Source: a virus. From it: a stretch of 64,000 bases of DNA. The translations under genes and the position numbers were made by a program. This document shows positions 9,642 through 51,472 of this stretch, one piece after another; positions within the stretch are counted from its first letter, which is position 1; each line of letters opens with the position of its first letter. Where the stretch lies: UHGV virus genome UHGV-0125682. One strand, 5' to 3'. The notes beneath the pieces are model-generated. The model ran no database searches. It was not told the origin of the DNA and saw only the letters and a program-made list of their open reading frames with translations.

Positions 9642-9670
9642 TTGATCTTCCATGTTTTCAGGCTTATATT
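9642..9670 (+). promoter_or_regulatory. sigma70-like promoter for immI-like module 1
   Basis: TTGATC, 17-nt spacer, TATATT, just downstream of operator. Confidence 0.45.
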
Positions 9671-9916
9671 CATGCCGTCGTAGCAAATTCTGCGACCGGG
9701 TTTGACAGCCTGAATACTTACGCGGACAACCGCACATTTCCGATATTGCGGTATTTTTGTGTCCGTAAAACCACGTTACGCCCGAATTATGGTGGGGCGT
9801 GATGGGGAGGCTTCGGCCTGCTGGTTTCGTAAGTGCCAGTCTGTCAACCCTGTCACGTCCTGCCACCTGTTTGACAGCGGGTCGCAGGTTGTTTATCAAC
9901 TTACGAGGCCGTAACT

Positions 9917-10141
9917 ATGGTTAATGCCAATCCTTGCTCACGCCCAGAATTCATCTGGCGTTTCCACTCCCTGCAAAAACACTGCGATCACTTCGCAATT
10001 GCCGCAACCGAAAAAGAAGCCCGTTCTCTGATCCCTGATCAGTATGGTGTTCTTACTGGTCGTTTCTCTACTTCCCCACAACCAAACACTAATCCCTGGT
10101 ATCGCAATATTACCAATCCCGGAATTGCGGAGGCACACTGA
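9917..10141 (+). CDS. Icd-like small protein (74 aa) preceding antirepressor
   Basis: Paralog of 50316..50531 (shared EFIWRF and CQKH motifs); stop/start overlap with ant-like gene. Confidence 0.5.
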   Translation: MVNANPCSRPEFIWRFHSLQKHCDHFAIAATEKEARSLIPDQYGVLTGRFSTSPQPNTNPWYRNITNPGIAEAH

Positions 10142-10848
10142 TGGAAATCTGCATTCTTGAAAAGCCATCAATGACCAGCATTGAGATCGCGGAGCTGGTG
10201 GGAAGTCGTCACTCTGATGTTAAACGCAGCATCGAAAGACTTGTTGCTAAAGGAGTTATCCAACATACGCCATTGGCTACAGTTGAGAATAATCAATCAC
10301 TTAGCCCTAATAAATACACAAAAGCCTATTTCTTCGAAGGCGAGCAAGGCAAGCGCGATAGTATTGTCGTCGTCGCGCAGCTCTCTCCCGAATTCACCGC
10401 CCGGCTGGTGGACCGCTGGCGCGAACTGGAAGAACAAGTACGCCAGCCGTTGACCGAAATAGAGATGATCGCCGCAATGGCTGCAAATGCAGTTCAGCAG
10501 CAAAAGCGGCTTCATGTTGTTGAGTCAAAGGTTAGTCAGGTGGTAGAAACCGTCGAGCAAATCAAGAAGGGCAACATGCCAGATGGTTACATTGGCTACC
10601 GCCAGCTGGCTGCGAAATGTGGACTGACCGAAGCCAAATGCCGCAACCTGGTTAATGCTTACCGGATTCCCACCGATACACATGAGTTTTTAACTCCAGA
10701 GGGGGTATTGTCGCGTCGTTCCATCGTGGCCTTATCTCCCTTCATGAATGCTTTTAACCGGATGATGTCGGAGGCTGAACACCGAGGAAAACGCTGGTAT
10801 CACCCCAAAATGGGGCAATTCCAGGTGATCGGTTGGGGAGGTGAGTGA
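10141..10848 (+). CDS. antirepressor-like protein (Rha/Ant-type)
   Basis: N-terminal MTSIEIAELVGSRHSDVKRSIERL signature; paralog of 50531..51472. Confidence 0.7.
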   Translation: MEICILEKPSMTSIEIAELVGSRHSDVKRSIERLVAKGVIQHTPLATVENNQSLSPNKYTKAYFFEGEQGKRDSIVVVAQLSPEFTARLVDRWRELEEQVRQPLTEIEMIAAMAANAVQQQKRLHVVESKVSQVVETVEQIKKGNMPDGYIGYRQLAAKCGLTEAKCRNLVNAYRIPTDTHEFLTPEGVLSRRSIVALSPFMNAFNRMMSEAEHRGKRWYHPKMGQFQVIGWGGE

Positions 10849-11045
10849 TGGACATCATGCAGGCGGTAAAAAAAATCAGGGAAGGACAGGCTGAAGTGTG
10901 CCGCCGTAAAGCATGGAGTGTTGGTGTATGGGCCTGGCCTGATAATTACTCTACTACCGGATGGTTTTGTATTAATGGACTCCAGATCCGGGAAGTTGAT
11001 TTATCGACGGCTGATATAGTCGGTAATGATTGGATCGTGACTTGA
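10845..11045 (+). CDS. small protein homologous to C-terminal domain of the second antirepressor
   Basis: VCRRKAWSVGVWAWP and DWIVT match the C-terminus of 50531..51472; ATGA overlap. Confidence 0.5.
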   Translation: MMDIMQAVKKIREGQAEVCRRKAWSVGVWAWPDNYSTTGWFCINGLQIREVDLSTADIVGNDWIVT

Positions 11046-11053
11046 AGCGTGAT

Positions 11054-11078
11054 GCCCCGGCCTGGCCGGGGCTTTTTT
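11054..11078 (+). terminator. intrinsic terminator
   Basis: gccccggcctggccggggc hairpin plus T6. Confidence 0.75.
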
Positions 11079-11563
11079 CATGCCTCATTAGTTGAGGTTG
11101 CTGCGTCTCCGACTGGTAACAGAGCGGTATTGCGTGGTTCGCCAGCAGGCCAGCGATAGCCAGACACTCTTGATGTTGGGAATGCACGAATATTAACCGC
11201 ATCCCCCTGGTTCCCACCCAGGACAAGCAGATCGCCATTGGCGCGGCGTCCGACAACGAAGCCTACGTGCCCACCGCCTACGCGGGTAAATACAACGATA
11301 CATCCGTATGCCGGTGTATCTAATTTCTCGCCCCAATCCAGATAGGATTTTGCCGACTCAAATCTTGTTGAGCGGATGCCTACACGTTCCAGCATTGCAC
11401 CGACAAATGCTGCGCACCACGGCGTTTCATCGTCTTTAATTCCGCCGCGCTTGATGTCGCGCCAGAACTGAACGATTTCAGGGTTGTGTTTAGCGCCTTT
11501 TATTTCAGTCAGGCCAATGTGCTTACGGGCTTCAATTAGCCAGCGAGGTTCAATGTTTGCCAT
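11078..11563 (-). CDS. NlpC/P60-CHAP-like peptidase family protein
   Basis: ETPWCAAFVG and GGHVGFVVG Cys/His segments typical of small phage cell-wall peptidases. Confidence 0.55.
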   Translation of the reverse strand: MANIEPRWLIEARKHIGLTEIKGAKHNPEIVQFWRDIKRGGIKDDETPWCAAFVGAMLERVGIRSTRFESAKSYLDWGEKLDTPAYGCIVVFTRVGGGHVGFVVGRRANGDLLVLGGNQGDAVNIRAFPTSRVSGYRWPAGEPRNTALLPVGDAATSTNEA

Positions 11564-11713: not shown

Positions 11714-14700
11714 TTGGACAAATTACTTCATTCAATCAGTGAAGCCTCCAGCTTAGGCGAACTGATTGAAATTGTTAGTCGGTTGCATAAATTACGTGCT
11801 GTTGCGACCTTTGGCGTCAGGAAAGCCGATGGCGTCAGTATTCAGAAAACACGCCGTGCAGCAAACAATGCCGCAGTAAATCTTCTTAATTCCCTTCCGC
11901 CCGGCTTCGATGGGGCGAAATTAACTGACGAACAACGTCAGATTCTTGCTGGGTATACCGGTGAAGGCGGCCTGACAGATGGTGAGGGCAGCCAATACGA
12001 ATACTACACGCCACAGTTTATGGCTGAAGGTATATGGGATCTGTTTGCTGACTACGGTATTGATGGCGGGCACGTACTGGAACCATCAGCGGGCACAGGT
12101 ATTTTCCAGGAGACAAAACGGCAGGGCATGATAATGACCAGCGCCGAACTGTCTCCGATTTCTGGTCGAATAAACCAGCTTTTGCACCCGGAAGACGATG
12201 TGAATATCGGGGCGTTTGAGGCGCTGGCGGCGAAAGATGCAATGTATGACCACGCTGTTGGTAACGTACCGTTTGGTGAAGGGCGTTCCGGCGTTGCCGG
12301 GCTTGATCCGGCATATGCAAACGAGAAGAACGTTGGCAATTACTTTGTGCTGCGCACGATCGACAAGGTTAAGCCAGGTGGGCTTATCGTATTGGTGGTG
12401 CCGAATGGCATGACCGATGGTACGAAATATAAAAAATTGCGCGATAAAGTCAGCCGTAAAGCGGAATTTTTGGGCGCACATCGTATGCCTTCCGGTACGT
12501 TCAGCGAATCTGGAACAGATACCGTGGTGGACGTATGGGTATTGCGTAAACACCCGGAAACCTTCCTGGAGATGATCCCCGACACGGATGATGCAACGCT
12601 CAAATCGGCAAACGTCCTTTGGGATACCTTCCTCAAAGGGAAATGGTTTACAACCGATGGGAAGCGATTTGTTTACGGCGACATGGAACGTACCAGCTTC
12701 CGCAATACCCTGGTGGTGAAAAAAGACGGTCGTGTATCCAATGAGTCGATGAAAACCGCGCTATCTCGTCGCTTTGATAGTCGCATCAATTGGGATTTGC
12801 TCGGCGTAACTACTCAGGCATGGCAGGGCGCGAAAGTGGGCGATAAACGCCTTGTAGGCGGTATCTGGCATGAGTTTGATGGTCTGAAATGGGTTAAGGA
12901 CACGACAACCAAATCCTCCGCGCTTGATGTAAGTCGATATGGTGTTTCGACGTTTGGCGATCTGCAGATCGCGTTCCAGTCAACAAACGGGATTCTGGCT
13001 TTGTCATGGGACCAGATATCGGCGATCGCGTCCGACTATCCATCGGTTGTCAGTGATGAAGTGGCAGCAATGATTCGCTTTGCTGGCAAACAGCGAGAAA
13101 AAGACAGGGAGCGCGTTATGCGCGGTGCGTTGATAGGGCAGTTGATCAACAAGGCACTTGATTTGCGTAACCTGGGGGTGAACGTTGATGACAAACTGGC
13201 AGATGCATCCCGCCTGGCGGCAGCAGAAGTTGCGAAGTATGGACCACCGCACGCGATTAAGCTGAATGGGCTTGCTGAAGCTGGCGCTAAAAACTGGATG
13301 ACGTTCACTGGCAATGTGAAACAGGATGGTTCCACTTCTGACCTTCTGGCAGGGCGACTTGATGTAACGGATGGTGCTGCCGGTATTGACTTTACGCGTC
13401 CTGAACAAGTGATAGCACATCTTTTTAGTGATGTAGCCCTTAATCCTATAACGCTGGGCGACTTTCGTGAGGCGTTTGCTGGTGAACTGCCAGAGGACGA
13501 CGACGCGGTCCTTGAATACCTGGCGAAATTTGATGATATCGCTATTGATGGGTATGGCTGTCTGCTGCCGATGGACCGCGCCACCAGCGGCGATGTTGCA
13601 ACCAAAACAGCACTGCTGGTGGGCTGGCGTGATGCGTCAACAGGTGAGCAGAAAGCGAACTTTGAGCGTCAGTTGGCGAAAATCGAAGAGAAACGCATTT
13701 TCACGCCACTAAATAAAGTCACCGTTAATCTGAATGCCCGCTGGCTGGATCGCCGCTTGATAAAAGAGTTCCTGGCAGAGCAGGGCTATGACGAGTTTAA
13801 GTACACTGAACCTGATCTGAAGGTCGTCGATGGCATTCTGGTATCTCCGGACGATTACGAAGGTAAGGACGGGGTATTTACCGGCTATCAGCTACGAACC
13901 GTAAACGGCAAAAACGGGAATGAGTTCAAGAAGGCCAACAATAAAGACGGCTTCCTGAACCAGTTAGAAAACTACCTGAACGGTGTTAAACCGCGTGGGC
14001 AGAACGCTAACGAGTACCTGGATAAAATTGCTCAACTGGAAGTTAGTTTTAACGACTGGTTACGCACTCACCCGCAGGCTGATCAGATAGCCCGCGAGTA
14101 TAACGACGCATTCAATGGTTTCATTCCGTTCACGCATTCTGACGCACCGCTTGGCCTGGAAGGGCTTAGTGGAAAGCGCATTCCTCTTACTTATCAGAAT
14201 GAAGAAGTTCGGCGCTTGTCAGAAGATGGGCGCGGCATCATGGGATTTGGTACCGGGCTGGGTAAAACCACGACCGCGCTTGCGCTTGAGGCGTATAACT
14301 TCGAAACAGGTCGCACTAAACGCACGTGTATTGTTGTTCCGAAGGCGGTTTATCAGAACTGGTATCACGAGGCACAGAGTTTCTACAGTGCTGATGCCTT
14401 CGCCAATATGATGTTTATCGGTTTGGATGAAGTTCGTGATGACAGCGGAAATATTCTGACCGCGCCGGTGCTTGATGAAAATGGCGAACCACGCCTCGAC
14501 AGTAACGGGCAGCCTCTTACCAGAAATGTTGTGAAAGAGTCCGCCAGCGCCGTTATCGTTCAGCGTATGAACATGATCCCGTCGTCAAATTGGCGAACGG
14601 TCATCATGACAAAAGAACAATTCGCGTCTATCCCGCTACGAGAAAAAACCATCGAGGAGAACTCACAGCAAGCTGTCTTTAATGCTGTGGAAATGGGGCG

Positions 14701-17700
14701 TCTTGACCTGGCGTCCGGTAAACACCGTGATGCGCAGAAGAAGAACAAGATTAAGGATCAGGCCGCGAATACCGGTACAACGAAGAAGCAGAATATCCCG
14801 TACTTTGAGGATATGAACTTCGATAGCGTGATTGCCGACGAGGGGCATAATTACCGCAACTCCTTTAATGCCGGGCGTGAAGCGGGACAACTGGCATATT
14901 TGCCTAACCCGGCAGTATCCAAGATGGCCCGCGACATGGCTGTAAAAGCTGCGTACATGATGAAACGCAACAACGGGCGTGGTGTAGTCATGCTGACGGC
15001 AACTCCGCTGGTGAACAGTCCGATTGATGCCTTCAACATGCTGTCTACTGTCATTCCGCAGGAAGAGTGGATGCGCATGGGTATTGTTACGCCGGATGAT
15101 TTCGTTCGCGTGTTCGGCAAAACAGCCACAGTTCAGGTTCAGAAAATTTCCGGTGAGGTGGAAGAGAAGCAGGGGCTGGTGGGCTTCCAGAACCTTGATG
15201 GTCTGCGTGGTATTTTCCACCGTTGGACCACTCTGAAGACTGCCGCAGATGTCGGAGCGACGGTTAAAATTCCCGATATCATCGAGAACACCTTGCAGAT
15301 CCCGATGACAGGGGAGCAGGAGGCTGCTTATGAAGAGCTTCGTAAGCGTGCTCAGGAGTTAAGTCGCAATGATGAGCTGACAGTCGATGAAAACGGGCAT
15401 ATCACTAACGACAAACCGGATGATTTCATCTTCTCCATCATCCGCGACATGGATAAGGTTGCTATAGATCCGGATCTGTATGCCAGTGCGATTACATTCC
15501 AGTTCCCCGTTGAGCTTGCAGACAAGGTAAAAGCTATTGCTGATGCCCTGCCAAAAGTCGCAGGCGGTAAAGTGGCAGATGATGCAGACGAGGCCGAAGA
15601 AGACGGCGCTGGTGGACTGGTCAGTACGCGTACCAGCAAGGTAGTGAAGACCACCTTTAGTGAACATCCGGCGCATGTTGAAATACGCGCCAGCATTGAA
15701 CTGGAAGCTGAAATACTGAAGGCCATTGCTGCCGCCGGGATTGATCTGCAGCAGGTATCACACCCCATCCCACCGAAGTATGCCGCGCTGATCGAAAACC
15801 TTCGTGAAGGTCTGAAGAACGGTAAACAAATTGTCTTCATTGATGAAAAAGCCCAGCACCAGAAGCTGCGCCGTATTATCGCCAGTGCACTGCAAATGCC
15901 GGAGCAGGAGATAGGCATTATCAATGCGACGACCGTTAGCCAAGCTGGCGGCATCAAGCTGAAGAAGGTGAATAAACCGACTGAACCTACTCCGAATAAA
16001 AACGGTGAATACAAAGAAGGGGCATGGGAAACCTACTACAGCAAACTTGCCCAATATGAGGATTATCTCTCAGCTAAAAATGATGCTGGCCTTGAGGGCA
16101 TGGAAGGTATTGCCGCCGACTATAACGAAGGTCGCACGCGCATCATAATCTGTAACAAGAAGGCTGAAGTAGGTATTAACCTGCACATCGGGACAACCGA
16201 TATCCACCACCTGACACTACCCTGGACACCAGCCAGTATCGACCAACGAAATGGGCGCGGTGCGCGCGTAGGGTCACCGCAAGAGAAGGTCAATGTTCAC
16301 TACTATTGTGGCAAAGGCACATTCGATGACTTCCGTCTGGATACGCTTAAACGTAAGAAAGACTGGATCAAGATGGTGATGACCTCCGACATGTCAGAGA
16401 TCGCCAATGGTGATGCGGATGATGCTGATGAACGCGCCATTATGCTGGCGGCAAACCCGGAAGAACGCCGCGCAATCATGGCTCGCCAGGCGCAAGAGCG
16501 TGAAGAACGTCTGAAACTGAAAGCACAGCGCGAGGCCAACAATGCTCTCGATATCTACCTGAAAGCGGCAAACGCCGCCGGAAAAGATATCGGCATGATG
16601 GAGACAGAACTGAAAAGCGCGATGGAACAGATAGAGTATTACCAGCGAAATCTTGACGACCTGATAAAAGCGGGTACGAACAGGAATGGGCAAAAATACG
16701 CGCTTGAGCAGTTGAGTAGCTACAGAAAACGTGCGCGGGTGCTGCGGTTTGCGATCACCAGGGCAAAAGACGCGGATACCATAATGAAACGCTCTCGTGG
16801 TGATGTGGAGCGCGCTATTAAGTCTGGTGTGCTGGATATCAGTATCGATGTTATTCAGAACCCACAGGAATATATGCGCACTGACAAGAATATCCTGTTG
16901 CATAAAGGTAGTTATTACCGTGCAGTCATTGATGATCGCGAAACAACAGCGATTGTCCGGGTGGAAAAAATTGACGGTGAAAAAGCACAATACCTCTGCC
17001 GTATCGCCTGGCTGGATAGAGCAAGTCGTTACGCTCGAGCACCGGGGTCAATCGTTACATTGCCGTTTGACTCTGTGATTGAAGCGGTAACTTTTGAAGA
17101 GGGGGTAGCTGAATCGCGCGCAACGGCTGCGCGAGGTGTTCAGTGCCACCAGCTATCAACAATACTTACTCGCGATCAGTTCTATGATGCTATTCGCAAT
17201 GGGGTAATGAATGTTATTGCTGGTAAACCTGGTAATGCATGGGGCGGTGGGTCAGCTATTAAATACTGGGCATATCGCACAGATGATGGTCAGATCGCGC
17301 TGTCATCGGCCTATGATGGCGTGATAGGCCAAAAAATCGGGCGAGCATCGGATATAGCACCTGAGCGATGGATATATCCTGATGGCAACGACGAGGCGCT
17401 GAAGCGTGAAGTGGCAAAAATACAAGCCAGTGATAACCCGCTGAATATCGTGGACGGCGAGGGATTCCTCCAGGCATTGTATGGGTATGATTACACCCAG
17501 GGAATGCAGGCATGGGGCGCACAGGCAACGATGGATGATGTTGCCCATGAGTTCGAAAACTGGATGGCTGGGCGTGGTCTGTCAGGTCGTTCGCTTAATA
17601 AAGTCACTTCTGAAGATATTCTTAGCTTGTTCCGCAAACCGTCCGGAGAAGGTCTGGAATCATTCTGGAGGACCGTGCTGGCATACCGTTTATTCCAGGG

Positions 17701-18550
17701 CAGGATGAAAGCCTTTAGCAATATCGATGATATTGAACGGATGTTTAATCAGGTCAAGATCGCGAAAATTAAGGCGAAGATCGAAAAAACACGTTCTGCG
17801 CTGGTGGCCTGGCGCGATGCATTGTTTGAGCAATATAAATCACTCAGTGATGCAGATGGATGGGCGGCATTGGAACAGCTGGCGAATAATGGGGTAGATG
17901 GAGCGAAACTCGCCATTGTTCAGGCTGATAACCCCCTGGAATCACCGGCAGCACAGTGGATTAAGGTGGGGGCTGTCATCAATGCATTTGATGAAAAACA
18001 CATTAGTAAGGACGATTTTGCTGATGCTGTTTCTGTTAATCGCCTGGTAGAAATGGCTACCCGCCGCGCCCGTGAGTTGAAAGACGGCGACTATGTGAAT
18101 GAGTTGCCGGATACGCTCAAATCGGCAACGTGGCAGGACTATGTATCGCTGAAAAACGGCGGGGCCACTGAATCAGAGATCGCGGAAAGGCTTGAGCAGG
18201 CTGAAAGCAAAAGAGAAGAGCAGGCGGCAGTGGCTGAAGCCAGAGCTGATGAAGCGGCGAATGATGACTATATCATTGTGGTTAATGATAAGCCGATTCG
18301 CGCTAAGGCGCGTGTTCGCGGGCGCTGGTGGAGCGTCAGCGAGGACGTTGGCGCGGTTTATCTCATTGCCGACCAACCAGGTTCCTCGACAATACGGAAC
18401 GCCAAAGACGCGATTAAGAAGATTGGCGGACGTTTCTGGAATTTTGAAGCAAACCCGGTTGCTGATGTGAACTTTGACCGTCCTGCATGGATGGTATCTA
18501 CGCGTTACTCGGTAGATGAACTGCGTAAAATAATCGCCGATGCGGCCTAA
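11714..18550 (+). CDS. darB: DarB-like antirestriction protein: N6-adenine methyltransferase fused to DExH helicase
   Basis: 2278 aa; AdoMet motif EPSAGTGIF, NVPF catalytic motif, Walker A GFGTGLGKTT around aa 842, DEGH motif around aa 1040. Confidence 0.8.
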   Translation: MDKLLHSISEASSLGELIEIVSRLHKLRAVATFGVRKADGVSIQKTRRAANNAAVNLLNSLPPGFDGAKLTDEQRQILAGYTGEGGLTDGEGSQYEYYTPQFMAEGIWDLFADYGIDGGHVLEPSAGTGIFQETKRQGMIMTSAELSPISGRINQLLHPEDDVNIGAFEALAAKDAMYDHAVGNVPFGEGRSGVAGLDPAYANEKNVGNYFVLRTIDKVKPGGLIVLVVPNGMTDGTKYKKLRDKVSRKAEFLGAHRMPSGTFSESGTDTVVDVWVLRKHPETFLEMIPDTDDATLKSANVLWDTFLKGKWFTTDGKRFVYGDMERTSFRNTLVVKKDGRVSNESMKTALSRRFDSRINWDLLGVTTQAWQGAKVGDKRLVGGIWHEFDGLKWVKDTTTKSSALDVSRYGVSTFGDLQIAFQSTNGILALSWDQISAIASDYPSVVSDEVAAMIRFAGKQREKDRERVMRGALIGQLINKALDLRNLGVNVDDKLADASRLAAAEVAKYGPPHAIKLNGLAEAGAKNWMTFTGNVKQDGSTSDLLAGRLDVTDGAAGIDFTRPEQVIAHLFSDVALNPITLGDFREAFAGELPEDDDAVLEYLAKFDDIAIDGYGCLLPMDRATSGDVATKTALLVGWRDASTGEQKANFERQLAKIEEKRIFTPLNKVTVNLNARWLDRRLIKEFLAEQGYDEFKYTEPDLKVVDGILVSPDDYEGKDGVFTGYQLRTVNGKNGNEFKKANNKDGFLNQLENYLNGVKPRGQNANEYLDKIAQLEVSFNDWLRTHPQADQIAREYNDAFNGFIPFTHSDAPLGLEGLSGKRIPLTYQNEEVRRLSEDGRGIMGFGTGLGKTTTALALEAYNFETGRTKRTCIVVPKAVYQNWYHEAQSFYSADAFANMMFIGLDEVRDDSGNILTAPVLDENGEPRLDSNGQPLTRNVVKESASAVIVQRMNMIPSSNWRTVIMTKEQFASIPLREKTIEENSQQAVFNAVEMGRLDLASGKHRDAQKKNKIKDQAANTGTTKKQNIPYFEDMNFDSVIADEGHNYRNSFNAGREAGQLAYLPNPAVSKMARDMAVKAAYMMKRNNGRGVVMLTATPLVNSPIDAFNMLSTVIPQEEWMRMGIVTPDDFVRVFGKTATVQVQKISGEVEEKQGLVGFQNLDGLRGIFHRWTTLKTAADVGATVKIPDIIENTLQIPMTGEQEAAYEELRKRAQELSRNDELTVDENGHITNDKPDDFIFSIIRDMDKVAIDPDLYASAITFQFPVELADKVKAIADALPKVAGGKVADDADEAEEDGAGGLVSTRTSKVVKTTFSEHPAHVEIRASIELEAEILKAIAAAGIDLQQVSHPIPPKYAALIENLREGLKNGKQIVFIDEKAQHQKLRRIIASALQMPEQEIGIINATTVSQAGGIKLKKVNKPTEPTPNKNGEYKEGAWETYYSKLAQYEDYLSAKNDAGLEGMEGIAADYNEGRTRIIICNKKAEVGINLHIGTTDIHHLTLPWTPASIDQRNGRGARVGSPQEKVNVHYYCGKGTFDDFRLDTLKRKKDWIKMVMTSDMSEIANGDADDADERAIMLAANPEERRAIMARQAQEREERLKLKAQREANNALDIYLKAANAAGKDIGMMETELKSAMEQIEYYQRNLDDLIKAGTNRNGQKYALEQLSSYRKRARVLRFAITRAKDADTIMKRSRGDVERAIKSGVLDISIDVIQNPQEYMRTDKNILLHKGSYYRAVIDDRETTAIVRVEKIDGEKAQYLCRIAWLDRASRYARAPGSIVTLPFDSVIEAVTFEEGVAESRATAARGVQCHQLSTILTRDQFYDAIRNGVMNVIAGKPGNAWGGGSAIKYWAYRTDDGQIALSSAYDGVIGQKIGRASDIAPERWIYPDGNDEALKREVAKIQASDNPLNIVDGEGFLQALYGYDYTQGMQAWGAQATMDDVAHEFENWMAGRGLSGRSLNKVTSEDILSLFRKPSGEGLESFWRTVLAYRLFQGRMKAFSNIDDIERMFNQVKIAKIKAKIEKTRSALVAWRDALFEQYKSLSDADGWAALEQLANNGVDGAKLAIVQADNPLESPAAQWIKVGAVINAFDEKHISKDDFADAVSVNRLVEMATRRARELKDGDYVNELPDTLKSATWQDYVSLKNGGATESEIAERLEQAESKREEQAAVAEARADEAANDDYIIVVNDKPIRAKARVRGRWWSVSEDVGAVYLIADQPGSSTIRNAKDAIKKIGGRFWNFEANPVADVNFDRPAWMVSTRYSVDELRKIIADAA

Positions 18551-22982: not shown

Positions 22983-23059
22983 GATGGTGTAGCTCAGTAG
23001 GATAGAGCAGCAGCCTTCTAAGCTGTCGGTCGGTGGTTCGAATCCACCCACCATCGCCA
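22983..23059 (+). tRNA. tRNA-Arg (anticodon UCU)
   Basis: Manual cloverleaf fold: 7-bp acceptor GATGGTG/CACCATC, TTCGAAT T-loop, anticodon loop CTTCTAA, encoded CCA. Confidence 0.85.
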
Positions 23060-23061
23060 AT

Positions 23062-23137
23062 GCCGGTTTAGCTCAGTTGGTAGAGCGCCTGCCTTGTAAG
23101 CAGGATGTCAGCGGTTCGAGTCCGTTAACCGGCACCA
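23062..23137 (+). tRNA. tRNA-Thr (anticodon UGU)
   Basis: Manual fold: acceptor GCCGGTT/AACCGGC, anticodon loop CTTGTAA, T-arm AGCGG-TTCGAGT-CCGTT, CCA. Confidence 0.85.
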
Positions 23138-24974: not shown

Positions 24975-25050
24975 GGCCCTTTAGCTCAGTGGTTAGAGCT
25001 GGCGACTCATAATCGCACGGTCACCGGTTCAAGTCCGGTAGGGGCCACCA
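24975..25050 (+). tRNA. tRNA-Met or tRNA-Ile2 (anticodon CAU)
   Basis: Manual fold: acceptor GGCCCTT/AGGGGCC, anticodon loop CTCATAA, T-arm ACCGG-TTCAAGT-CCGGT, CCA. Confidence 0.8.
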
Positions 25051-40205: not shown

Positions 40206-40967
40206 TTACTCACCTCCTTTGATGCGAATGCCTGCAGCGCGGATTGCAGCGATGACTTCAGAAACTTTGTATGCCATTACCGTTTGGTAATCATCGTGAA
40301 AATCTGTTCGATGAAGCATGCTGCTACGTTCCGGGAGCGATATTTCCCGAGCATCCAGTTCCTTAACGCGTTCCTCCAGTTCGTAGACCCTGCATTGTTC
40401 TCTATCATCAATCAGATATAACCCAAGACATTCGCTTTCTACCCAACCGCCAAAATCATGATCGTAACGCTCACATGAAAACTCACCGTCACCGTCCTTT
40501 GTTGGAATGGTGTAACTATCTAATGGGCCACCATATGTCGGCACATTTCCCAATGTTGGATGCTCAATCCACATGAAAAATGCACGTCCGGTTATTGGGC
40601 AAATATCTGGCCGCCATTGGTTACGAACAGCCTTGGTTTCGGATAATTCTTCAGCGTGTTGTTTTACTTCCTCAAGCTCAACTCTCAGCTTCCCTACCGT
40701 TAGCGCAATATCCTCGTTCTCCTGATCGCGGCGTTTTATGTATTGCTGGTTTCTTTCCCGTTCATCCAGAAGCGCCAAGACGGTAGCCGGATTGGCTGCG
40801 GCGATGAATTCAGCATCACGAGATTCGTTTTCACTGAACACCATAGCTATTTGCTCATGGTTTATGCCGTCAGTGGAGTAAATCTCATCGTCGAATTCAA
40901 CAGCCCACTTACCTTTCGTAGCCTTCTCTGCCGCCTCACGCAGTGCCTGATAGTCAATCTTGCTCAC
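40206..40967 (-). CDS. Ead/Ea22-like protein
   Basis: N-terminal MSKIDYQALREAAEKAT signature. Confidence 0.55.
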   Translation of the reverse strand: MSKIDYQALREAAEKATKGKWAVEFDDEIYSTDGINHEQIAMVFSENESRDAEFIAAANPATVLALLDERERNQQYIKRRDQENEDIALTVGKLRVELEEVKQHAEELSETKAVRNQWRPDICPITGRAFFMWIEHPTLGNVPTYGGPLDSYTIPTKDGDGEFSCERYDHDFGGWVESECLGLYLIDDREQCRVYELEERVKELDAREISLPERSSMLHRTDFHDDYQTVMAYKVSEVIAAIRAAGIRIKGGE

Positions 40968-41268
40968 TGGCAGCCTCCTTTGCCGGGATTTCTAACTTTT
41001 GAGTGGTTGTATCAAATTCAAACAACTTAACCACGTCATCAAACAGGACATAATCACCATCAGGATCTTCAGTCATATCTGCGCCACAATCCTGACCGCA
41101 CGAGTCGCAACCATCCATATCAAGCTCGTATCGCTTCAGGTTTGCGATATTTGATAAATTCAGCGCCAGTACAGCCAGGTCATAAACCTCTTCGGCAGTG
41201 ACATCGCTGTTCAGTCCCATTTCATGGCGATATATGATTTTTTCTACCCGTTGTTTTGTGATTGTCAT
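40954..41268 (-). CDS. hypothetical acidic protein
   Basis: ORF. Confidence 0.45.
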   Translation of the reverse strand: MTITKQRVEKIIYRHEMGLNSDVTAEEVYDLAVLALNLSNIANLKRYELDMDGCDSCGQDCGADMTEDPDGDYVLFDDVVKLFEFDTTTQKLEIPAKEAASEQD

Positions 41269-41765
41269 TTTTGCTCACCTCCCTGTTCTTCCAGAAAAAT
41301 ACGCATAGCCTCAAGCATCTCTTCGGTGTCATACGGTGACAACTTGTCACGCAGGATGTGTTCAATGCTGTTAATGAACTTGCGGATTGCTTTGCGTTCA
41401 ATTTCAGCCAGGAAAGCGTCGGTGGCTGACATATTTCCTGTTGCCTTCATGGCCTTCAAAATAACCAGAACGCCATCTCGCCCAACCACCTCAGCGATAA
41501 CCTCAGTGTTGTCGCCAACAACATCGCAGAATGCCTGAACTGCCTTACGAGCCAGCTCATTCTCCACTGCCAGCGCCGCGCACTTGGCCTCAAGAGCGGC
41601 AACCACTTCCTGATGGTCTTTGTACTTAACGTATGAGCCGGAGATGTCATCACCTTCGGTGTTTAGCCATGCGTCATTGCAATTCACTGCGTAGGTTCTG
41701 ATGCTCATGTTGATGCTCTCCCGCCCCTGACAGACGCCAGGCCAGTCAATAAAGTATCCGCACAA
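41265..41765 (-). CDS. hypothetical protein (Ea22-like C-terminal region), start uncertain
   Basis: Overlaps an Ea22-like N-terminal fragment ORF (41705..41890) in another frame. Confidence 0.4.
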   Translation of the reverse strand: MCGYFIDWPGVCQGRESINMSIRTYAVNCNDAWLNTEGDDISGSYVKYKDHQEVVAALEAKCAALAVENELARKAVQAFCDVVGDNTEVIAEVVGRDGVLVILKAMKATGNMSATDAFLAEIERKAIRKFINSIEHILRDKLSPYDTEEMLEAMRIFLEEQGGEQK

Positions 41766-41876
41766 TGCCTACCCTCAGACGTGCGCGCAGGATAAATGCC
41801 GTTATGACCCGGCAAAATATATGCTACCCATTCATCTTGCGTTGCCTGTTCCGCCGCCTCGCGCAGTTCTTGATAG

Positions 41877-42578
41877 TTAATTTTGCTCACTGGTTGCCCC
41901 CTGAATACGCTTAAACTCGATTACCCACACCCAAGGATTAGCGTTCCAACTATCTTCGCCATAAATTGATTTCCATAGGCTACGGAAACATGGGTAATGC
42001 TTATCGCCAATGAGGGTCGATTCTGTTGGTGCGCCCTCAGCCCTTGCATCGCATTCGCTGATATCGTTCAACCGCTCAACGCGCACGTTGGTAATTTCCA
42101 GAAGAATGCGCGATGCCCAGCGCGGCATGTGAATTGATGGACACCACCCGCCATCAAATTTTTCATTCACAGTGTGAGGTTTCCAGTCGGCATCATCGGG
42201 TATCGACCACAAGCCGTAATCACCCGGCTTTTGCTCACAACTGGCCCGATAAATCCTTGCTGCGTTCTTCTCATCGCCACGACAAAGGTTGTCGTTCCAG
42301 TCCACACTGCAACCATCCTCATTGCCTAATATCGCCCACGCCTCACGGACCCATATGCGATCACCAACGTTACCGAACGGGCATAAACCATGTTCAGGTG
42401 CATCCATAACGTGGGTATAGACACCATTGCGTTTCTTTGTCGGTTTACGGATAACCAGGCAGTTATCGGCCCTGACATTTTTTACAGGTCGGCGAGTCTG
42501 CGTCTTCCTTCCTTCGAGGATGGCCCTGACCATCTCATCGTTAAAAATCATCCCGCGTTCTTTCATTTTTTGATCCAC
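41877..42578 (-). CDS. hypothetical prophage protein
   Basis: ORF. Confidence 0.5.
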   Translation of the reverse strand: MDQKMKERGMIFNDEMVRAILEGRKTQTRRPVKNVRADNCLVIRKPTKKRNGVYTHVMDAPEHGLCPFGNVGDRIWVREAWAILGNEDGCSVDWNDNLCRGDEKNAARIYRASCEQKPGDYGLWSIPDDADWKPHTVNEKFDGGWCPSIHMPRWASRILLEITNVRVERLNDISECDARAEGAPTESTLIGDKHYPCFRSLWKSIYGEDSWNANPWVWVIEFKRIQGATSEQN

Positions 42579-45414: not shown

Positions 45415-46052
45415 TGTTTGCCTCCTTTTCGAAGCTGGTCAGCGAACCTATCAGCTGCATCCGCGCAAGCAGAAGCAACGGAATCAAAAAATGGATCATC
45501 TCCGGTATCGCGCATCGTCAAAGCGAATGCCTCCACCCCTTGTGCCTGTATTTCTACAAGGTATGCCTTAGATGTAGTGCTTTTCGCCTCGCCTAATTCG
45601 TTATGAGCGATGTTCGCTATACATGCGATGTCTATATCTGGATGATTAATTGGGCAATGGCTAAGAATTGCCTCAAGTGCTGCTTTTTTGCTTTGGCATT
45701 CCGCCACCATCGCCCCGCAATTGCTTTCATATTCGGCAATACGCTGTTTAGCAGCCTCCAGCTCAACACGCAGCTTCTCAAGCGTTAGAGCCATCTCCAT
45801 GTTCTCGTCCAGCAGTTCAATCACATCAGGATCGCTATCATCAACTACTGTTATGCGCGATTTTTTGTAATGCTCGTCAGCATAAGTTCGTCCAGTTTTG
45901 AAGCATCCGTCGTCCTCCATGCCGGAACAGGCATAAACAACATGTGATCCAGATATGCGCTGCATTGACATTTCCTCGCCACAAACAGAGCATTTAGGCG
46001 CTGGTTTCGGTGAAAAACGTTCACGTAACGTATGATAGTAAAGCTCGCTCAC
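45411..46052 (-). CDS. Ea22-like protein
   Basis: Shared C-terminal ...ADQLRKGGKQ module and coiled coil. Confidence 0.5.
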   Translation of the reverse strand: MSELYYHTLRERFSPKPAPKCSVCGEEMSMQRISGSHVVYACSGMEDDGCFKTGRTYADEHYKKSRITVVDDSDPDVIELLDENMEMALTLEKLRVELEAAKQRIAEYESNCGAMVAECQSKKAALEAILSHCPINHPDIDIACIANIAHNELGEAKSTTSKAYLVEIQAQGVEAFALTMRDTGDDPFFDSVASACADAADRFADQLRKGGKQ

Positions 46053-46846
46053 TGGCTGCCTCCTTTGCGAAGCTGTTCAGCGATATCTTCGAGAACGCCA
46101 TCAGAGAATGAGCGGTCAAAATCGCCTTCCCGCGCATTAGCCATAAACTCAGTAGAGGTAAGAATCATCCGGGCAATATCCGCGGCGTTCTTCGCAGTAT
46201 CATCAATAAAACCAGCTTCCCAAGCAGCCAGCATTCTGTTCGCCACAAAGTAAGCGCCCTCCTTGCGTGCTTCAGTCTTCACTTCATCCAGGAAAGTGTC
46301 GGTCGCAGGAGTGGTTTTTTGTGGTGATAGGGCGATACGAATTGTTTCAAGAGCTGGATCTATTTCCACTGTTGGCACTTTGATAAAACCAAGCTGCACG
46401 CCATTCATAATGAACGTGCGGCGATCCTCACATATCGCCTTCAGTCTCGCATTCTCCGCAGCCAGCGCCGCGCGATTACCCTCCAGCTCTGCAATGCGCT
46501 GTTTTGCGGTATCAAGTTCAATCGATAATTTTTCCAACTGCTCTTTATGCTTCTTATATTCCTGATATGCGTGCCAGGACTGACCTTTGCGCACACTATC
46601 AGTAATATCAGTAATCTGTTCTGGTGTTAGCGTAGTCAGTGGCTGTGCTGGGAAAATCAGCACTTTCCCGGAATCCCAATCAAAACCAGCGTGAATTGAC
46701 TGAACCTCAACTGAGGGTGTTGAACCAATGCTGCCAGGCGAATGAACAACGATCGTTACATCCATATCGCGACGATGGCTGTGGTTGTTGGACAAAATAC
46801 GATTCACCAACTCAGAAAATTTGGAGAATTTCATGCGGAGCCTCAA
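46049..46846 (-). CDS. Ea22-like protein
   Basis: C-terminal ...AEQLRKGGSQ module. Confidence 0.5.
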   Translation of the reverse strand: MRLRMKFSKFSELVNRILSNNHSHRRDMDVTIVVHSPGSIGSTPSVEVQSIHAGFDWDSGKVLIFPAQPLTTLTPEQITDITDSVRKGQSWHAYQEYKKHKEQLEKLSIELDTAKQRIAELEGNRAALAAENARLKAICEDRRTFIMNGVQLGFIKVPTVEIDPALETIRIALSPQKTTPATDTFLDEVKTEARKEGAYFVANRMLAAWEAGFIDDTAKNAADIARMILTSTEFMANAREGDFDRSFSDGVLEDIAEQLRKGGSQ

Positions 46847-47253: not shown

Positions 47254-47738
47254 TTGTCAGCTCCTTTGCGAATCTGTTCCGCCCATTCTTCAAGGGATTT
47301 CTCCGCATATTCACCGGACAGGCCATCAATCGGGTGCGGTTCATTAGCCAACTCTTCTTTCGCTGACAGAATCATGCGTGTAACGTCGAAAACTTCACGT
47401 AAAGACTTATTGATAAATCCGTGGTTGAAAGCAGCAGCAAGACGGCTTGCGGTATAGTTAATCCCCTCGTTGCGAGCCTCCGCACGAATTTCAGCCAGAA
47501 AAGCATCGGTGGCTGGAGTTTCGCTGTGGTGCAGGGCATCGTTGATAATCATTGCAGCAACTCCGGCCTGCCCTGCATCCGTGACCGACACATGCTCAAG
47601 AGTTACAGCCATTGCATGTTTCAGCCCAGCATTCTCCGCCGCCAGCGCCGAGCGTTCTTTCTCAAGTCGGGAAATTTCCGTTACATACTCAGCGTTACGC
47701 TCTGCCAGTTGTGCTGGCGTTAAACCTTCAGACTTCAT
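47250..47738 (-). CDS. Ea22-like protein
   Basis: C-terminal ...AEQIRKGADK module. Confidence 0.5.
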   Translation of the reverse strand: MKSEGLTPAQLAERNAEYVTEISRLEKERSALAAENAGLKHAMAVTLEHVSVTDAGQAGVAAMIINDALHHSETPATDAFLAEIRAEARNEGINYTASRLAAAFNHGFINKSLREVFDVTRMILSAKEELANEPHPIDGLSGEYAEKSLEEWAEQIRKGADK

Positions 47739-50003: not shown

Positions 50004-50315
50004 AACACTGACTGTTGCGCCCTGGCATTATCGTGGGGTATATTTCTACGGCACCTTAGAAAAACGGGTGCCGGGATTGGAACCCCGGATAATGCAAAAG
50101 GCGACACAGACGCCGAAAGCGTCTTTTTTTGTGTCATGCCATCGCACAGCCATACGTAGCGTTTAGCTCAGAGATCAATGGTAGTGCTGGCTGGGCTGCC
50201 GAAAGGCAGGCCGGTTCCCTTTTGCGCCGGTAGTTCCAACCCAGTCAGTGCTACCGCCATTGAGATTGGAACCTCACGCGGTAGCTCCTTAAATTAGCAA
50301 AAGGAGGCTGCCAAT

Positions 50316-50531
50316 ATGGCTACTATCCCTACCCCAACTCATTCTGAATTTATCTGGCGTTTCTATTCCTGCCAAAAACACCTGTATATCTGCGTCATGG
50401 CTGCTACCGAAGCAGAAGCTCGTTCATACCTTCCTGAAGAACCCTGCATTTTTGCCGCACGCTTCACTCTTGATGCGATGGAGATCCTAAATTACTGGAA
50501 TCTGCCAATGAACTGCGTGGAGGTGCACTGA
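50316..50531 (+). CDS. Icd-like small protein, copy 2
   Basis: Paralog of 9917..10141; AAAGGAGG RBS. Confidence 0.5.
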   Translation: MATIPTPTHSEFIWRFYSCQKHLYICVMAATEAEARSYLPEEPCIFAARFTLDAMEILNYWNLPMNCVEVH

Positions 50532-51472
50532 TGAATCTGTCCATCTCTCAAAAAGCGACAATGACCAGTATTGAGATCGCGGAACTGGTAGGTAAGCGTC
50601 ATGATAATGTGAAGCGTACCATTGAAGTATTAACTAAAGGTGGTGTCATTCAATTTCCTCAAATTGAGGAAATTGAAAATAAACAATCAGTTGGCCCTCG
50701 TCGATTTTCCAAGGCTTACATATTTGAAGGCGAACAAGGAAAACGAGACAGCATCATTGTCGTCGCGCAGCTCTCTCCGGAATTCACCGCCCGGCTGGTG
50801 GACCGCTGGCGCGAACTGGAGAATGCCCGGGTACAGTTAAAATCAAAAGCCGAAATTCTGGCTGAAATGGCGCAAATGCATCTTGAGCATGAACGCCGGA
50901 TCAACGCCGTAAATGCCCAGGTAGCCGAGGTATCAGCACAAGTATCGATGGTCGCTGAAACACTCGAGCAAATAAAGAAAGGCAATATTCCGGAAGGCTA
51001 CATTGGCTACCGCCAGCTGGCGGCGAAATGTGGCCTGACTGAAGCCAAATGTCGCAACCTGGTTAACGCTTTCCGGATTCCCACCGATACGCATGAGTTT
51101 TTAACTCCAGATGGTTTGCTTGCGCGACGCTCCATTGTGGCCCTGGTCCCCTTCCGGAAAGCCTTTAAGCAGGTGATGTCGGAGGCAGAACCACGCAATA
51201 AACGCTGGTATCATCCAAAGATGGGGATGTTTCAGGCAATCCACCATCCTGTGCCTGAAAGCCCAAAGGATAATCTGTCACTACATACCGTCAGAGAGAA
51301 GATCAGGACTGGATACGCAACAGTGTGTCGTCGTTCTTCCTGGCCTGAAGGTATATGGGTGTGGCCCGAAGGTGGATCACGAAAGCACTGTCGCACCATC
51401 CGTGACGGGAAAATCCATGCTATTGATTTAGCTCCAGAGGATGTTATTGCTATGGACTGGATTGTTAGTTAA
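50531..51472 (+). CDS. antirepressor-like protein (Rha/Ant-type) with fused C-terminal domain
   Basis: Paralog of 10141..10848 plus C-terminal region matching 10845..11045. Confidence 0.7.
   Translation: MNLSISQKATMTSIEIAELVGKRHDNVKRTIEVLTKGGVIQFPQIEEIENKQSVGPRRFSKAYIFEGEQGKRDSIIVVAQLSPEFTARLVDRWRELENARVQLKSKAEILAEMAQMHLEHERRINAVNAQVAEVSAQVSMVAETLEQIKKGNIPEGYIGYRQLAAKCGLTEAKCRNLVNAFRIPTDTHEFLTPDGLLARRSIVALVPFRKAFKQVMSEAEPRNKRWYHPKMGMFQAIHHPVPESPKDNLSLHTVREKIRTGYATVCRRSSWPEGIWVWPEGGSRKHCRTIRDGKIHAIDLAPEDVIAMDWIVS

Follow-up and report, generated by a model that had tools for sequence, protein, structure and literature searches.

Why should two genes that lie about 40 kb apart in one replicon, and that differ over most of their length, share tracts of almost identical nucleotides? 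This question is raised by a 64,000-nucleotide (nt) stretch of UHGV virus genome UHGV-0125682 (hereafter the window, meaning the whole stretch that was analyzed), in which the genes ant1 and ant2 occupy the 'ant' position of two operons, modules 1 and 2. Each operon is of the immI type, consisting of a C4 antisense RNA, an icd-like gene and an 'ant' gene of the Roi/Rha family. The region of module 1 is 96.5% identical in nucleotides to Escherichia phage D6 (NC_050154) over 2.2 kb, and the module 2 locus is 90% identical to another D6 locus. By its sequence, the source of the window is a D6-like phage-plasmid of the P1 family with two anciently diverged immI-type operons. We consider it likely that the shared tracts are kept alike by recurrent gene conversion or exchange between the ant copies of D6-like elements, rather than by constraint on the sequence itself. 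The comparison of related genomes identifies the similarity as homogenization across the D6-like gene pool together with swapping of a domain cassette, and not as the trace of a recent event in the window genome.

The two genes are divided into the following segments, where fixed differences are those between copy 1 and copy 2 of the D6-like genes, d12 is the distance between the copies, and pi is the diversity within them.

10141..10848, + strand: ant1, Roi/Rha-family regulator in the 'ant' position, 235 amino acids (aa) (Pfam Phage_pRha, 33.4 bits; phrog_63)
10171..10203, + strand: left conserved junction of the N-domain cassette, 29/33 identical to copy 2, 0 fixed differences
10204..10335, + strand: hypervariable core of the N-terminal winged-helix cassette, residues about 22-65, 58% identical between the copies
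10336..10430, + strand: tract 1 (core 10367-10430), homogenized block and right junction of the cassette, 62/64 identical, 0 fixed differences, d12 = pi
10431..10545, + strand: copy-specific linker, from its sequence probably a helical coiled coil, 53 fixed differences in 115 nt
10546..10700, + strand: tract 2 (core 10588-10700), with a helix-turn-helix (HTH)-like core (GYIGYRQLAAKCGLTEAKCRNLVNAYRIPTDTHEFLTP), 106/113 identical, weak match to HTH_AsnC
10701..10845, + strand: copy-specific C-part of ant1, 20 fixed differences, d12 = 0.32
50531..51472, + strand: ant2, Roi/Rha-family regulator fused to a C-terminal Tad2-like domain, 313 aa (Pfam Phage_pRha, 37.3 bits)
50757..50820, + strand: tract 1 in copy 2, with a Chi site at 50794-50801
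50957..51111, + strand: tract 2 in copy 2

When the window was compared with itself by BLAST, the ant1/ant2 pair was the only long-range repeat, and divergence along the two paralogs was uneven rather than uniform. A reading of the window from its letters alone (the sequence-only reading) had placed a near-identical tract at 10370-10431 versus 50760-50821, where 60 of 62 positions indeed agree. The best bounds of this tract 1 are 10367-10430 versus 50757-50820, and its longest exact match is 41 nt (10390-10430 = 50780-50820), whereas shuffling the alignment columns 10,000 times gave runs of 40 nt at most. The second tract of that reading exists as a block, but its register was off by one base, as 10591-10700 agrees with 51001-51110 at only 33 of 110 positions and with 51002-51111 at 103 of 110. 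Its best bounds are 10588-10700 versus 50999-51111, and the larger block 10546-10700 is identical at 139 of 155 positions. A third short conserved block (10789-10815, KRWYHPKMG) lies in the C-part of ant1, with 24 of 27 positions identical. The flanks and the N-terminal sequence are divergent, as had been described, with about 45-67% identity around the tracts (58% in the variable part, about 45-47% in the linker, and 67% in the C-part), and the copy-specific segments (leader, linker, C-part, and C-terminal region) are about 30-55% divergent overall. Conservation of the protein alone is insufficient to explain the tracts, since among codons that specify the same amino acid in both window copies, identical codons were used at 18/20 sites in tract 1 and 30/36 in tract 2 (together 48/56), compared to 38/93 elsewhere (Fisher p=6e-8).

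From IMG/VR and GTDB genomes, 170 related loci were collected, which yielded 92 distinct full-length genes, comprising class 1 (module-1 type, 19 genes), class 2 (module-2 type, 19), class 3 (38), class 4 (9), and 7 outgroups that are relatives of the C-half with another N-domain. A scan of genome contigs with ant2 gave 8 distant loci with a different N-domain, which served solely as outgroups. Classes 1 and 2 make up the D6-like set of 38 sequences. In this set the core of tract 1 has no fixed differences, with a distance between classes of 0.041 and a pi of 0.049/0.031, and the core of tract 2 likewise has none, with 18 shared polymorphisms and a distance of 0.071 against a pi of 0.070/0.062. 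The distance between copies amounts to 0.53 in the linker and 0.29 in the C-part. Some of the IMG/VR sequences are draft or metagenome assemblies, in which chimeras can form at just this kind of repeat, and the test was therefore repeated on nine closed genomes, namely the window, D6, and seven complete PLSDB plasmids.

Tract 1 core: 0 fixed differences, 4 shared polymorphisms; distance between copies 0.037, within copies 0.036 / 0.032
Tract 2 core: 0 fixed, 12 shared; between 0.060, within 0.059 / 0.052
Linker (115 nt): 53 fixed, 2 shared; between 0.55, within 0.037 / 0.031
C-part: 20 fixed, 0 shared; between 0.32, within 0.015 / 0.027
C-terminal domain: 47 fixed, 1 shared; between 0.47, within 0.015 / 0.098

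In the closed genomes, the nearest neighbor of a copy came from the other copy in 9 of 18 cases for tract 1 and in 5 of 18 for tract 2, and in none of 18 for either the linker or the C-part, as expected of segments with incongruent trees. The absence of fixed differences, the shared polymorphisms and the intermixing of copies as neighbors bear out the 'gene conversion or mosaic exchange' that had been proposed from the window alone. Moreover, in the 38 class-3 genes the tract-1 peptide (…PEFTARLVDRWRELE) is unchanged but is specified by the codons CGC CTG GTA GAT in place of CGG CTG GTG GAC, and the distance of these genes from the D6-like copies is 0.15 in tract 1 and 0.30 in tract 2. This recoding of one peptide indicates that the identity in nucleotides characterizes the D6-like gene pool rather than the protein family.

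Exchange extends to the N-terminal domain as a whole. Aligned four ways, the window and D6 copies are strongly different at residues about 22-65, even between orthologs, and both ant1 and ant2 of the window have cassette alleles other than those of the D6 copies. At 90% nucleotide identity the cassette core occurs in at least 21 alleles, two of which are found in both copy-1 and copy-2 contexts, and closely related alleles also occur in the prophage class (chromosomal cI-cro-roi prophages). Over 10169-10430, just 4 positions separate window ant1 from copy 2 of plasmid CP074704, and directly outside this interval the two are unrelated, with sharp breakpoints at both ends, the left one within 10171..10203. 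Such abrupt breakpoints mark the whole N-terminal winged-helix Roi/Rha domain as an exchangeable cassette of ~260 nt (10169-10430), with the conserved 33 nt of 10171-10203 as its left boundary and tract 1 as its right one. The right junction is used family-wide, for tblastn matches of the N-domain to the Roi proteins of HK97, mEpX2 and Stx phages always break off at residue 97-98, where tract 1 also ends, and at the nucleotide level the similarity to KilAC-type antirepressors ceases at 10432-10434. GC content at third codon positions (GC3) is 0.82 in the junction blocks (10171-10203 and 10366-10431) versus 0.30 in the cassette core (10204-10335), the GC content of the window being 0.478. All nine closed genomes carry different cassette alleles in their two copies, which is not significant given the number of alleles. 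As for programmed switching of the cassette, self-BLAST of the 64-kb window, which is part of the replicon, found no further copies of cassette or tracts. Silent donor cassettes or recombinase sites flanking the variable segment, as in shufflons, invertible segments, conversion from silent cassettes, and diversity-generating retroelements, were thus not found in the window.

An exact Chi octamer, 5'-GCTGGTGG-3' (for which GCTCGTGG is a synonymous change), lies on the + strand in tract 1 of both copies (10404-10411 and 50794-50801), and ant1 has a second one at 10194-10201, within the left junction of the cassette. The tract-1 Chi is found in 38/38 D6-like copies and in 0/38 class-3 copies. The window as a whole holds 46 Chi sites (29 on the + strand and 17 on the - strand; for example 2358, 7726, 10194, 10404 ... 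63512), a 27-fold excess over the 1.7 expected from shuffles and a density of one per 1.4 kb. P1 itself carries one Chi per 1.9 kb and is dependent on RecBCD, and its relatives are also rich in Chi (PMC12315714). Chi-stimulated RecBCD/RecA recombination is thus a plausible engine of the exchange, although both the pathway and any role of Chi are inferred.

We propose that recurrent homologous recombination of the RecA type between the copies would keep tracts 1 and 2 almost identical. It would take place inside single genomes and, to at least the same extent, between D6-like elements that come together in a cell. Wherever more than about 25-40 nt of exact identity remain, exchange would go on and keep the stretch homogenized, while diverged stretches would no longer pair and would drift on or be held apart by selection. 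Tract 1 would have a second role as the right junction of the cassette that is moved between copy-1 and copy-2 contexts. Given that a Chi lies in every D6-like copy of tract 1, and that the window holds one per 1.4 kb, RecBCD probably feeds the exchange.

Several observations weigh against this proposal, or at least against its simplest form. Plasmid CP085065 does have private tract-2 variants common to both its copies, but the overall excess similarity of same-genome copies in tract 2 is weak (0.070 within versus 0.078 between genomes; permutation p=0.033, n=9), and the tract-2 pair of the window is the most divergent among the nine genomes (0.103). Strictly intragenomic conversion, as opposed to exchange between elements, is therefore only modestly supported, and the homogenization would have operated across the element pool at least as much as inside single genomes. 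The 32-nt core of tract 1 (GCCCGGCTGGTGGACCGCTGGCGCGAACTGGA) is invariant in the 18 closed-genome copies, and among the 38 D6-like copies just one departs from it, at one base. It is conserved beyond what neutral homogenization alone would predict, and some direct constraint, on Chi or on codon choice, may have been added. At the Chi density of the window, the chance that a 64-nt tract contains a site is about 5%, which makes the tract-1 Chi only mildly unexpected and not specific to this locus. Finally, draft and metagenome assemblies from IMG/VR may be chimeric at the repeats, for which the closed-genome subset serves as the control.

Could such constraint account for the tracts by itself? 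If they were functional DNA or RNA, such as Chi, an RNA structure, an antisense target or a protein-binding site, purifying selection on nucleotides would keep them alike, and this fits with the nearly invariant 32-nt core, the Chi in every D6-like copy, and the high GC3 of tract 1 and the left junction relative to the cassette. The tract-1 region is also the only part with nucleotide-level matches in Pseudomonas and Paracoccus replicons (H89, H90). The class-3 relatives, however, have kept the peptide with changed codons and no Chi, and tract 2 and the 5' part of tract 1 carry synonymous polymorphism with the same alleles in both copies (12-18 shared), which constraint does not predict. RNA folding z-scores in the tracts were not negative overall (+1.25, +0.69, +0.94, -0.51) and complementarity of the tracts to either C4 RNA does not exceed 8-9 nt, on which grounds an RNA element was rejected; neither a promoter-like site nor a credible terminator hairpin was found inside the tracts. 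We regard selection on nucleotides as an unlikely main cause. Still harder to uphold is a single old duplication under uneven protein constraint with no exchange at all. It is true that the peptide motifs best conserved in the family (SPEFTARLVDRWRELE; GYRQLAAKCGL...IPTDTHEF) are encoded in the tracts, but this account predicts equal synonymous divergence along the genes, contrary to the codon counts above, and it leaves us with tracts that lack fixed differences and whose copies interleave as neighbors beside segments with 20-53 fixed differences, and with identical cassettes in copy-1 and copy-2 contexts of different plasmids. We give it hardly any credence.

The sequence-only reading had further suggested that the repeats could mediate deletions, in which case the tracts would be mainly substrates for unequal recombination that deletes or rearranges the intervening 40 kb. 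They are direct repeats with a 41-nt exact match, and one metagenome contig, L108, joins DNA from upstream of module 1 to DNA from downstream of module 2. This contig, however, switches from copy 1 to copy 2, back to copy 1 and again to copy 2 exactly at the three shared blocks, and the hybrid junction is covered to at least 80% by none of 594 matching PLSDB plasmid records. L108 was accordingly discarded as a deletion product and is a probable assembly chimera. D6-like plasmids without ant2 still measure 89-94 kb, having not lost the 40 kb, and the interval holds darB and other large phage genes. Deletion as the main significance of the tracts found no support in these records and is very unlikely. 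Recurrent exchange between D6-like ant copies remains the reading that we prefer.

Concerted evolution of bacterial paralogs by short-tract gene conversion is known, for example, from tufA/tufB. The ant genes resemble that case in their homogenized synonymous sites, shared polymorphisms, lack of fixed differences, and dependence on residual identity. Unlike tufA/tufB, they are homogenized in two short islands only and are otherwise very divergent, and the exchange seems to involve the pool of elements, not just the two copies of one genome. Taken as a whole, the main finding is a well-resolved case of two known processes, phage mosaicism and domain shuffling, in an already sequenced and annotated lineage, and the Tad2-like link described below is its new part. 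A second c4/icd region had already been remarked in the D6-like plasmid pYU39_89 (PMC6799933). In the literature covered, which had the D6 genome paper outside its scope, we found no description of homogenized tracts, of swapped cassettes, or of orf17 as Tad2-like.

What kind of proteins are being shuffled? Both window proteins pass the cutoff of the Rha domain (PF09669, 29.9 bits) over residues 11-98, and their N-domains share 67-75% identity with the Roi proteins of HK97, mEpX2, and many Stx phages; Roi is known from HK022 as well. ant1 is 87% identical to D6 orf18, and ant2 matches phrog_63 over its full length and phrog_7385 on residues 254-312. By sequence, then, ant1 and ant2 are regulators of the Roi/Rha family. 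The label 'antirepressor' that they had been given follows from the immI-like position in the operon and from the name of phrog_63, and is best taken as a name by operon position, the activity that it implies, inactivation of the C1 repressor, being putative. The same two halves occur in other combinations, as in phage Fraca, where the C-half sits behind an ORF6N domain, and elsewhere the N-domain precedes KilAC C-termini. Domain-shuffled Bro-N / KilA-N / Rha regulators of DNA viruses were reportedly recognized by Iyer, Koonin and Aravind in 2002, and judging from the domain matches, the recombinations of N-domain and C-half follow this known pattern. What differs here is that the shuffling is seen at the nucleotide level inside one phage lineage, that the junction is a conserved Chi-bearing tract of 64-95 nt, and that two resident copies draw on one pool of alleles.

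The genomic setting of these regulators varies. Among class-3 loci, those examined (L059 most closely) have the gene immediately behind a cI(S24)-cro pair, with an isrK/C4 element downstream of it. Positions 67-2238 of L059, a prophage contig from IMG/VR, show the class-3 relative in translational coupling with a cro-like gene, beside a divergent gene for an S24-type cI repressor, and since the regulator is upstream, not downstream, of the isrK-like and C4 RNA pair, its placement relative to the antisense switch differs. Copies of ant2 truncated by frameshifts or stops (45, 212 or 299 aa) occur in four IMG/VR contigs (L103, L109, L112, L113), and the D6-like plasmid NZ_CP029365.1 and about seven others have no ant2 copy. 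The PLSDB gene table, which is incomplete and omits pseudogenes, lists no ant2 for the RefSeq D6-like plasmid records checked; pseudogenization in some lineages, trouble in annotating the fused gene, or incompleteness of the table are possible causes.

The two genes also differ in how they end, for which three further features are needed.

10848..11045, + strand: free-standing Tad2-like open reading frame (ORF), 65 aa, translationally coupled to ant1 (BLASTP versus ant2; phrog_7385)
51281..51469, + strand: Tad2-like domain of ant2, residues about 251-313, joined via a Pro-rich linker
11054..11072, + strand: terminator-like GC hairpin and T run (8 GC pairs, then TTTTTT) ending the operon of module 1

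It had been noticed from the window alone that the C-terminal domain of copy 2 exists as a separate overlapping ORF in copy 1. The correspondence holds (41% identity with ant2 residues 256-313, BLASTP E=3e-16), but the ORF probably starts with the ATG at 10848, as in the D6 annotation, rather than with a GTG at 10845. From there it overlaps the stop of ant1 (TGATG) and is preceded by a Shine-Dalgarno sequence, GGAGGTGA. The junction sequences of the two copies are unalignable, so that the fission or fusion is not a recent frameshift, and since all other classes end like ant1 (…IGW..), a fusion in the ant2 lineage is likelier than a fission.

In D6 the small ORF is annotated as hypothetical. 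Against the Tad2 family (PF11195, also DUF2829), it gave a full-length match of 15.2 bits (E=0.032), below the cutoff of 25; the Pfam scan with PF11195 gave no match for the C-terminus of ant2, and a sequence search against the PDB found no Tad2, the best hit having E=0.89 among unrelated proteins. A word-indexed protein search with the 65-aa ORF returned 3 close matches and an exhaustive profile search 8 relatives, suggesting that its family is small and divergent. One of these relatives (P0009) scores 37.4 bits for PF11195, above the cutoff, and another 23.9 bits. Alignment of the 65-aa ORF family with P0009 by hhalign covered 64 columns with 96.6% probability (E=4.8e-10). A first AlphaFold2 model, built on a two-sequence alignment (predicted local distance difference test, pLDDT, of 69), returned nothing from Foldseek and was superseded by one on a six-sequence alignment, with a pLDDT of 90.9. 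With this model, the top 10 Foldseek matches in the PDB were all Tad2 (probability 1.00, template modeling score 0.72-0.76, E=0.02-0.1), the next ones falling below a probability of 0.25. The structures matched include 8wje, 8v3e, 8smf, 9eib, and 8smg, from SPO1 and Myroides odoratus, either apo or with glycocyclic ADP-ribose (gcADPR) or His-ADPR. The model and the profile alignment support a Tad2 fold and remote homology for the 65-aa ORF and the C-terminal domain of ant2.

Tad2 is the DUF2829 protein of phage SPO1 that counters Thoeris defense by sequestering its signal gcADPR (bioRxiv 10.1101/2023.05.01.538930). Compared with solved Tad2 chains, the 65-aa ORF is shorter (65 versus 73-96 residues), and it sits in a regulator operon controlled by antisense RNA, to whose ant2 counterpart the domain is fused. 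That the Tad2-fold domain is a working small-molecule binder under immI (C4 antisense RNA) control is an unlikely reading, which would have two versions. The phage-plasmid might make an anti-Thoeris sponge in its first-expressed operon, or, more radically, the fused domain might render the Roi/Rha regulator responsive to a nucleotide signal of host immunity, such as gcADPR. Under such a reading, swapping of N-domain cassettes would at the same time redirect the regulator to other repressors or operators.

The remaining features of the two operons are as follows.

9664..9716, + strand: a1/b1 target sites of the C4 antisense RNA, module 1 (Rfam RF03163, 55.9 bits, above the gathering score)
9785..9870, + strand: C4 antisense RNA, module 1 (Rfam RF01695, 69.6 bits)
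9917..10141, + strand: icd-like gene, module 1, 74 aa (NCBIfam phage_ICD_like, 40 bits with a cutoff of 25; phrog_1426; Icd-like in D6)
50051..50129, + strand: isrK-like leader RNA at the position of the C4 targets, module 2 (Rfam RF01394, 62.5 bits)
50174..50261, + strand: C4 antisense RNA, module 2 (Rfam RF01695, 76.7 bits)
50316..50531, + strand: icd-like gene, module 2, 71 aa (phrog_1426, E=4e-41; Icd-like in D6)

The gene order of D6 matches that of the window at both loci, with repL, the icd-like gene, 'anti-repressor Ant' (orf18), the small hypothetical ORF (orf17), an opposite-strand CHAP-domain gene and darB at module 1, and ref, small ORFs, the icd-like gene, 'anti-repressor Ant' (orf82) and a pmgF-like gene at module 2. 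The D6 counterparts of the two modules are hence orf17-19 and orf82-83, and D6-like plasmid prophages include pYU39_89. Module 1 matches P1/P7 at 86-92% identity in its c4-icd region, and the window shares with the immI of P1/P7 the C4 RNA together with its a/b targets. Also shared is an icd-like ORF in translational coupling with the gene that follows, its stop and the next start having one base in common (TGATG) in both modules. The 'ant'-position gene of the window, in contrast to that of P1/P7, is of the Roi/Rha family, its relationship to P1 Ant1/Ant2 not being established, and the window has two orthogonal modules whose C4 RNAs are strongly diverged, their pairwise alignment being poorly conserved. 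With an a1/b1 target before one C4 RNA gene and an isrK-like RNA before the other, this arrangement suggests two independently regulated immI-type switches in one replicon. The P1-type C1 operator consensus has no match at 3 or fewer mismatches anywhere in the window, and a C1 operator inside the ant1 cassette, considered on a resemblance of 12/17, was dropped for this reason.

Around the operons, a 161-aa CHAP-domain gene (11078-11563) adjoins, in divergent orientation, an ORF of 2278 aa (11714-18550) that is DarB-like in D6, of the methyltransferase/helicase type and named 'SNF2-related' in plasmid records. Three tRNA genes lie on the + strand at 22983-23056, 23062-23134, and 24975-25047 (Rfam tRNA, 65-75 bits). 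Short direct repeats of 29-67 nt, 81-93% identical, fall inside a 7-kb stretch (40904-40983 versus 41827-41893 and 46033-46068; 41400-41428 versus 47487-47515). In one related plasmid (L171, NZ_CP029365.1), a TnpB-family gene of the IS200/IS605 type is located at 1515-2684, between repL and the module-1 C4/icd region.

On the practical side, tracts of this kind can yield chimeric assemblies, such as contig L108, and mis-annotation, of which the absence of ant2 from the PLSDB gene table may be an example. For the biology of these elements, the ant pair is a clean and well-controlled case of phage mosaicism at base-pair resolution, in which two resident paralogs and a pool of relatives swap a DNA-binding-domain cassette at short conserved Chi-bearing junctions, while the remainder of each ant gene stays copy-specific. 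Less expected is that a lysis-lysogeny regulator in an operon controlled by antisense RNA should be coupled with, or fused to, a domain of the Tad2 fold. If the fused domain did respond to the immune signal, activation of Toll/interleukin-1 receptor (TIR) defense would feed directly into the lysis-lysogeny decision, and if the domain is functional, counter-defense would be linked to the immunity circuitry of clinically widespread Enterobacteriaceae phage-plasmids.

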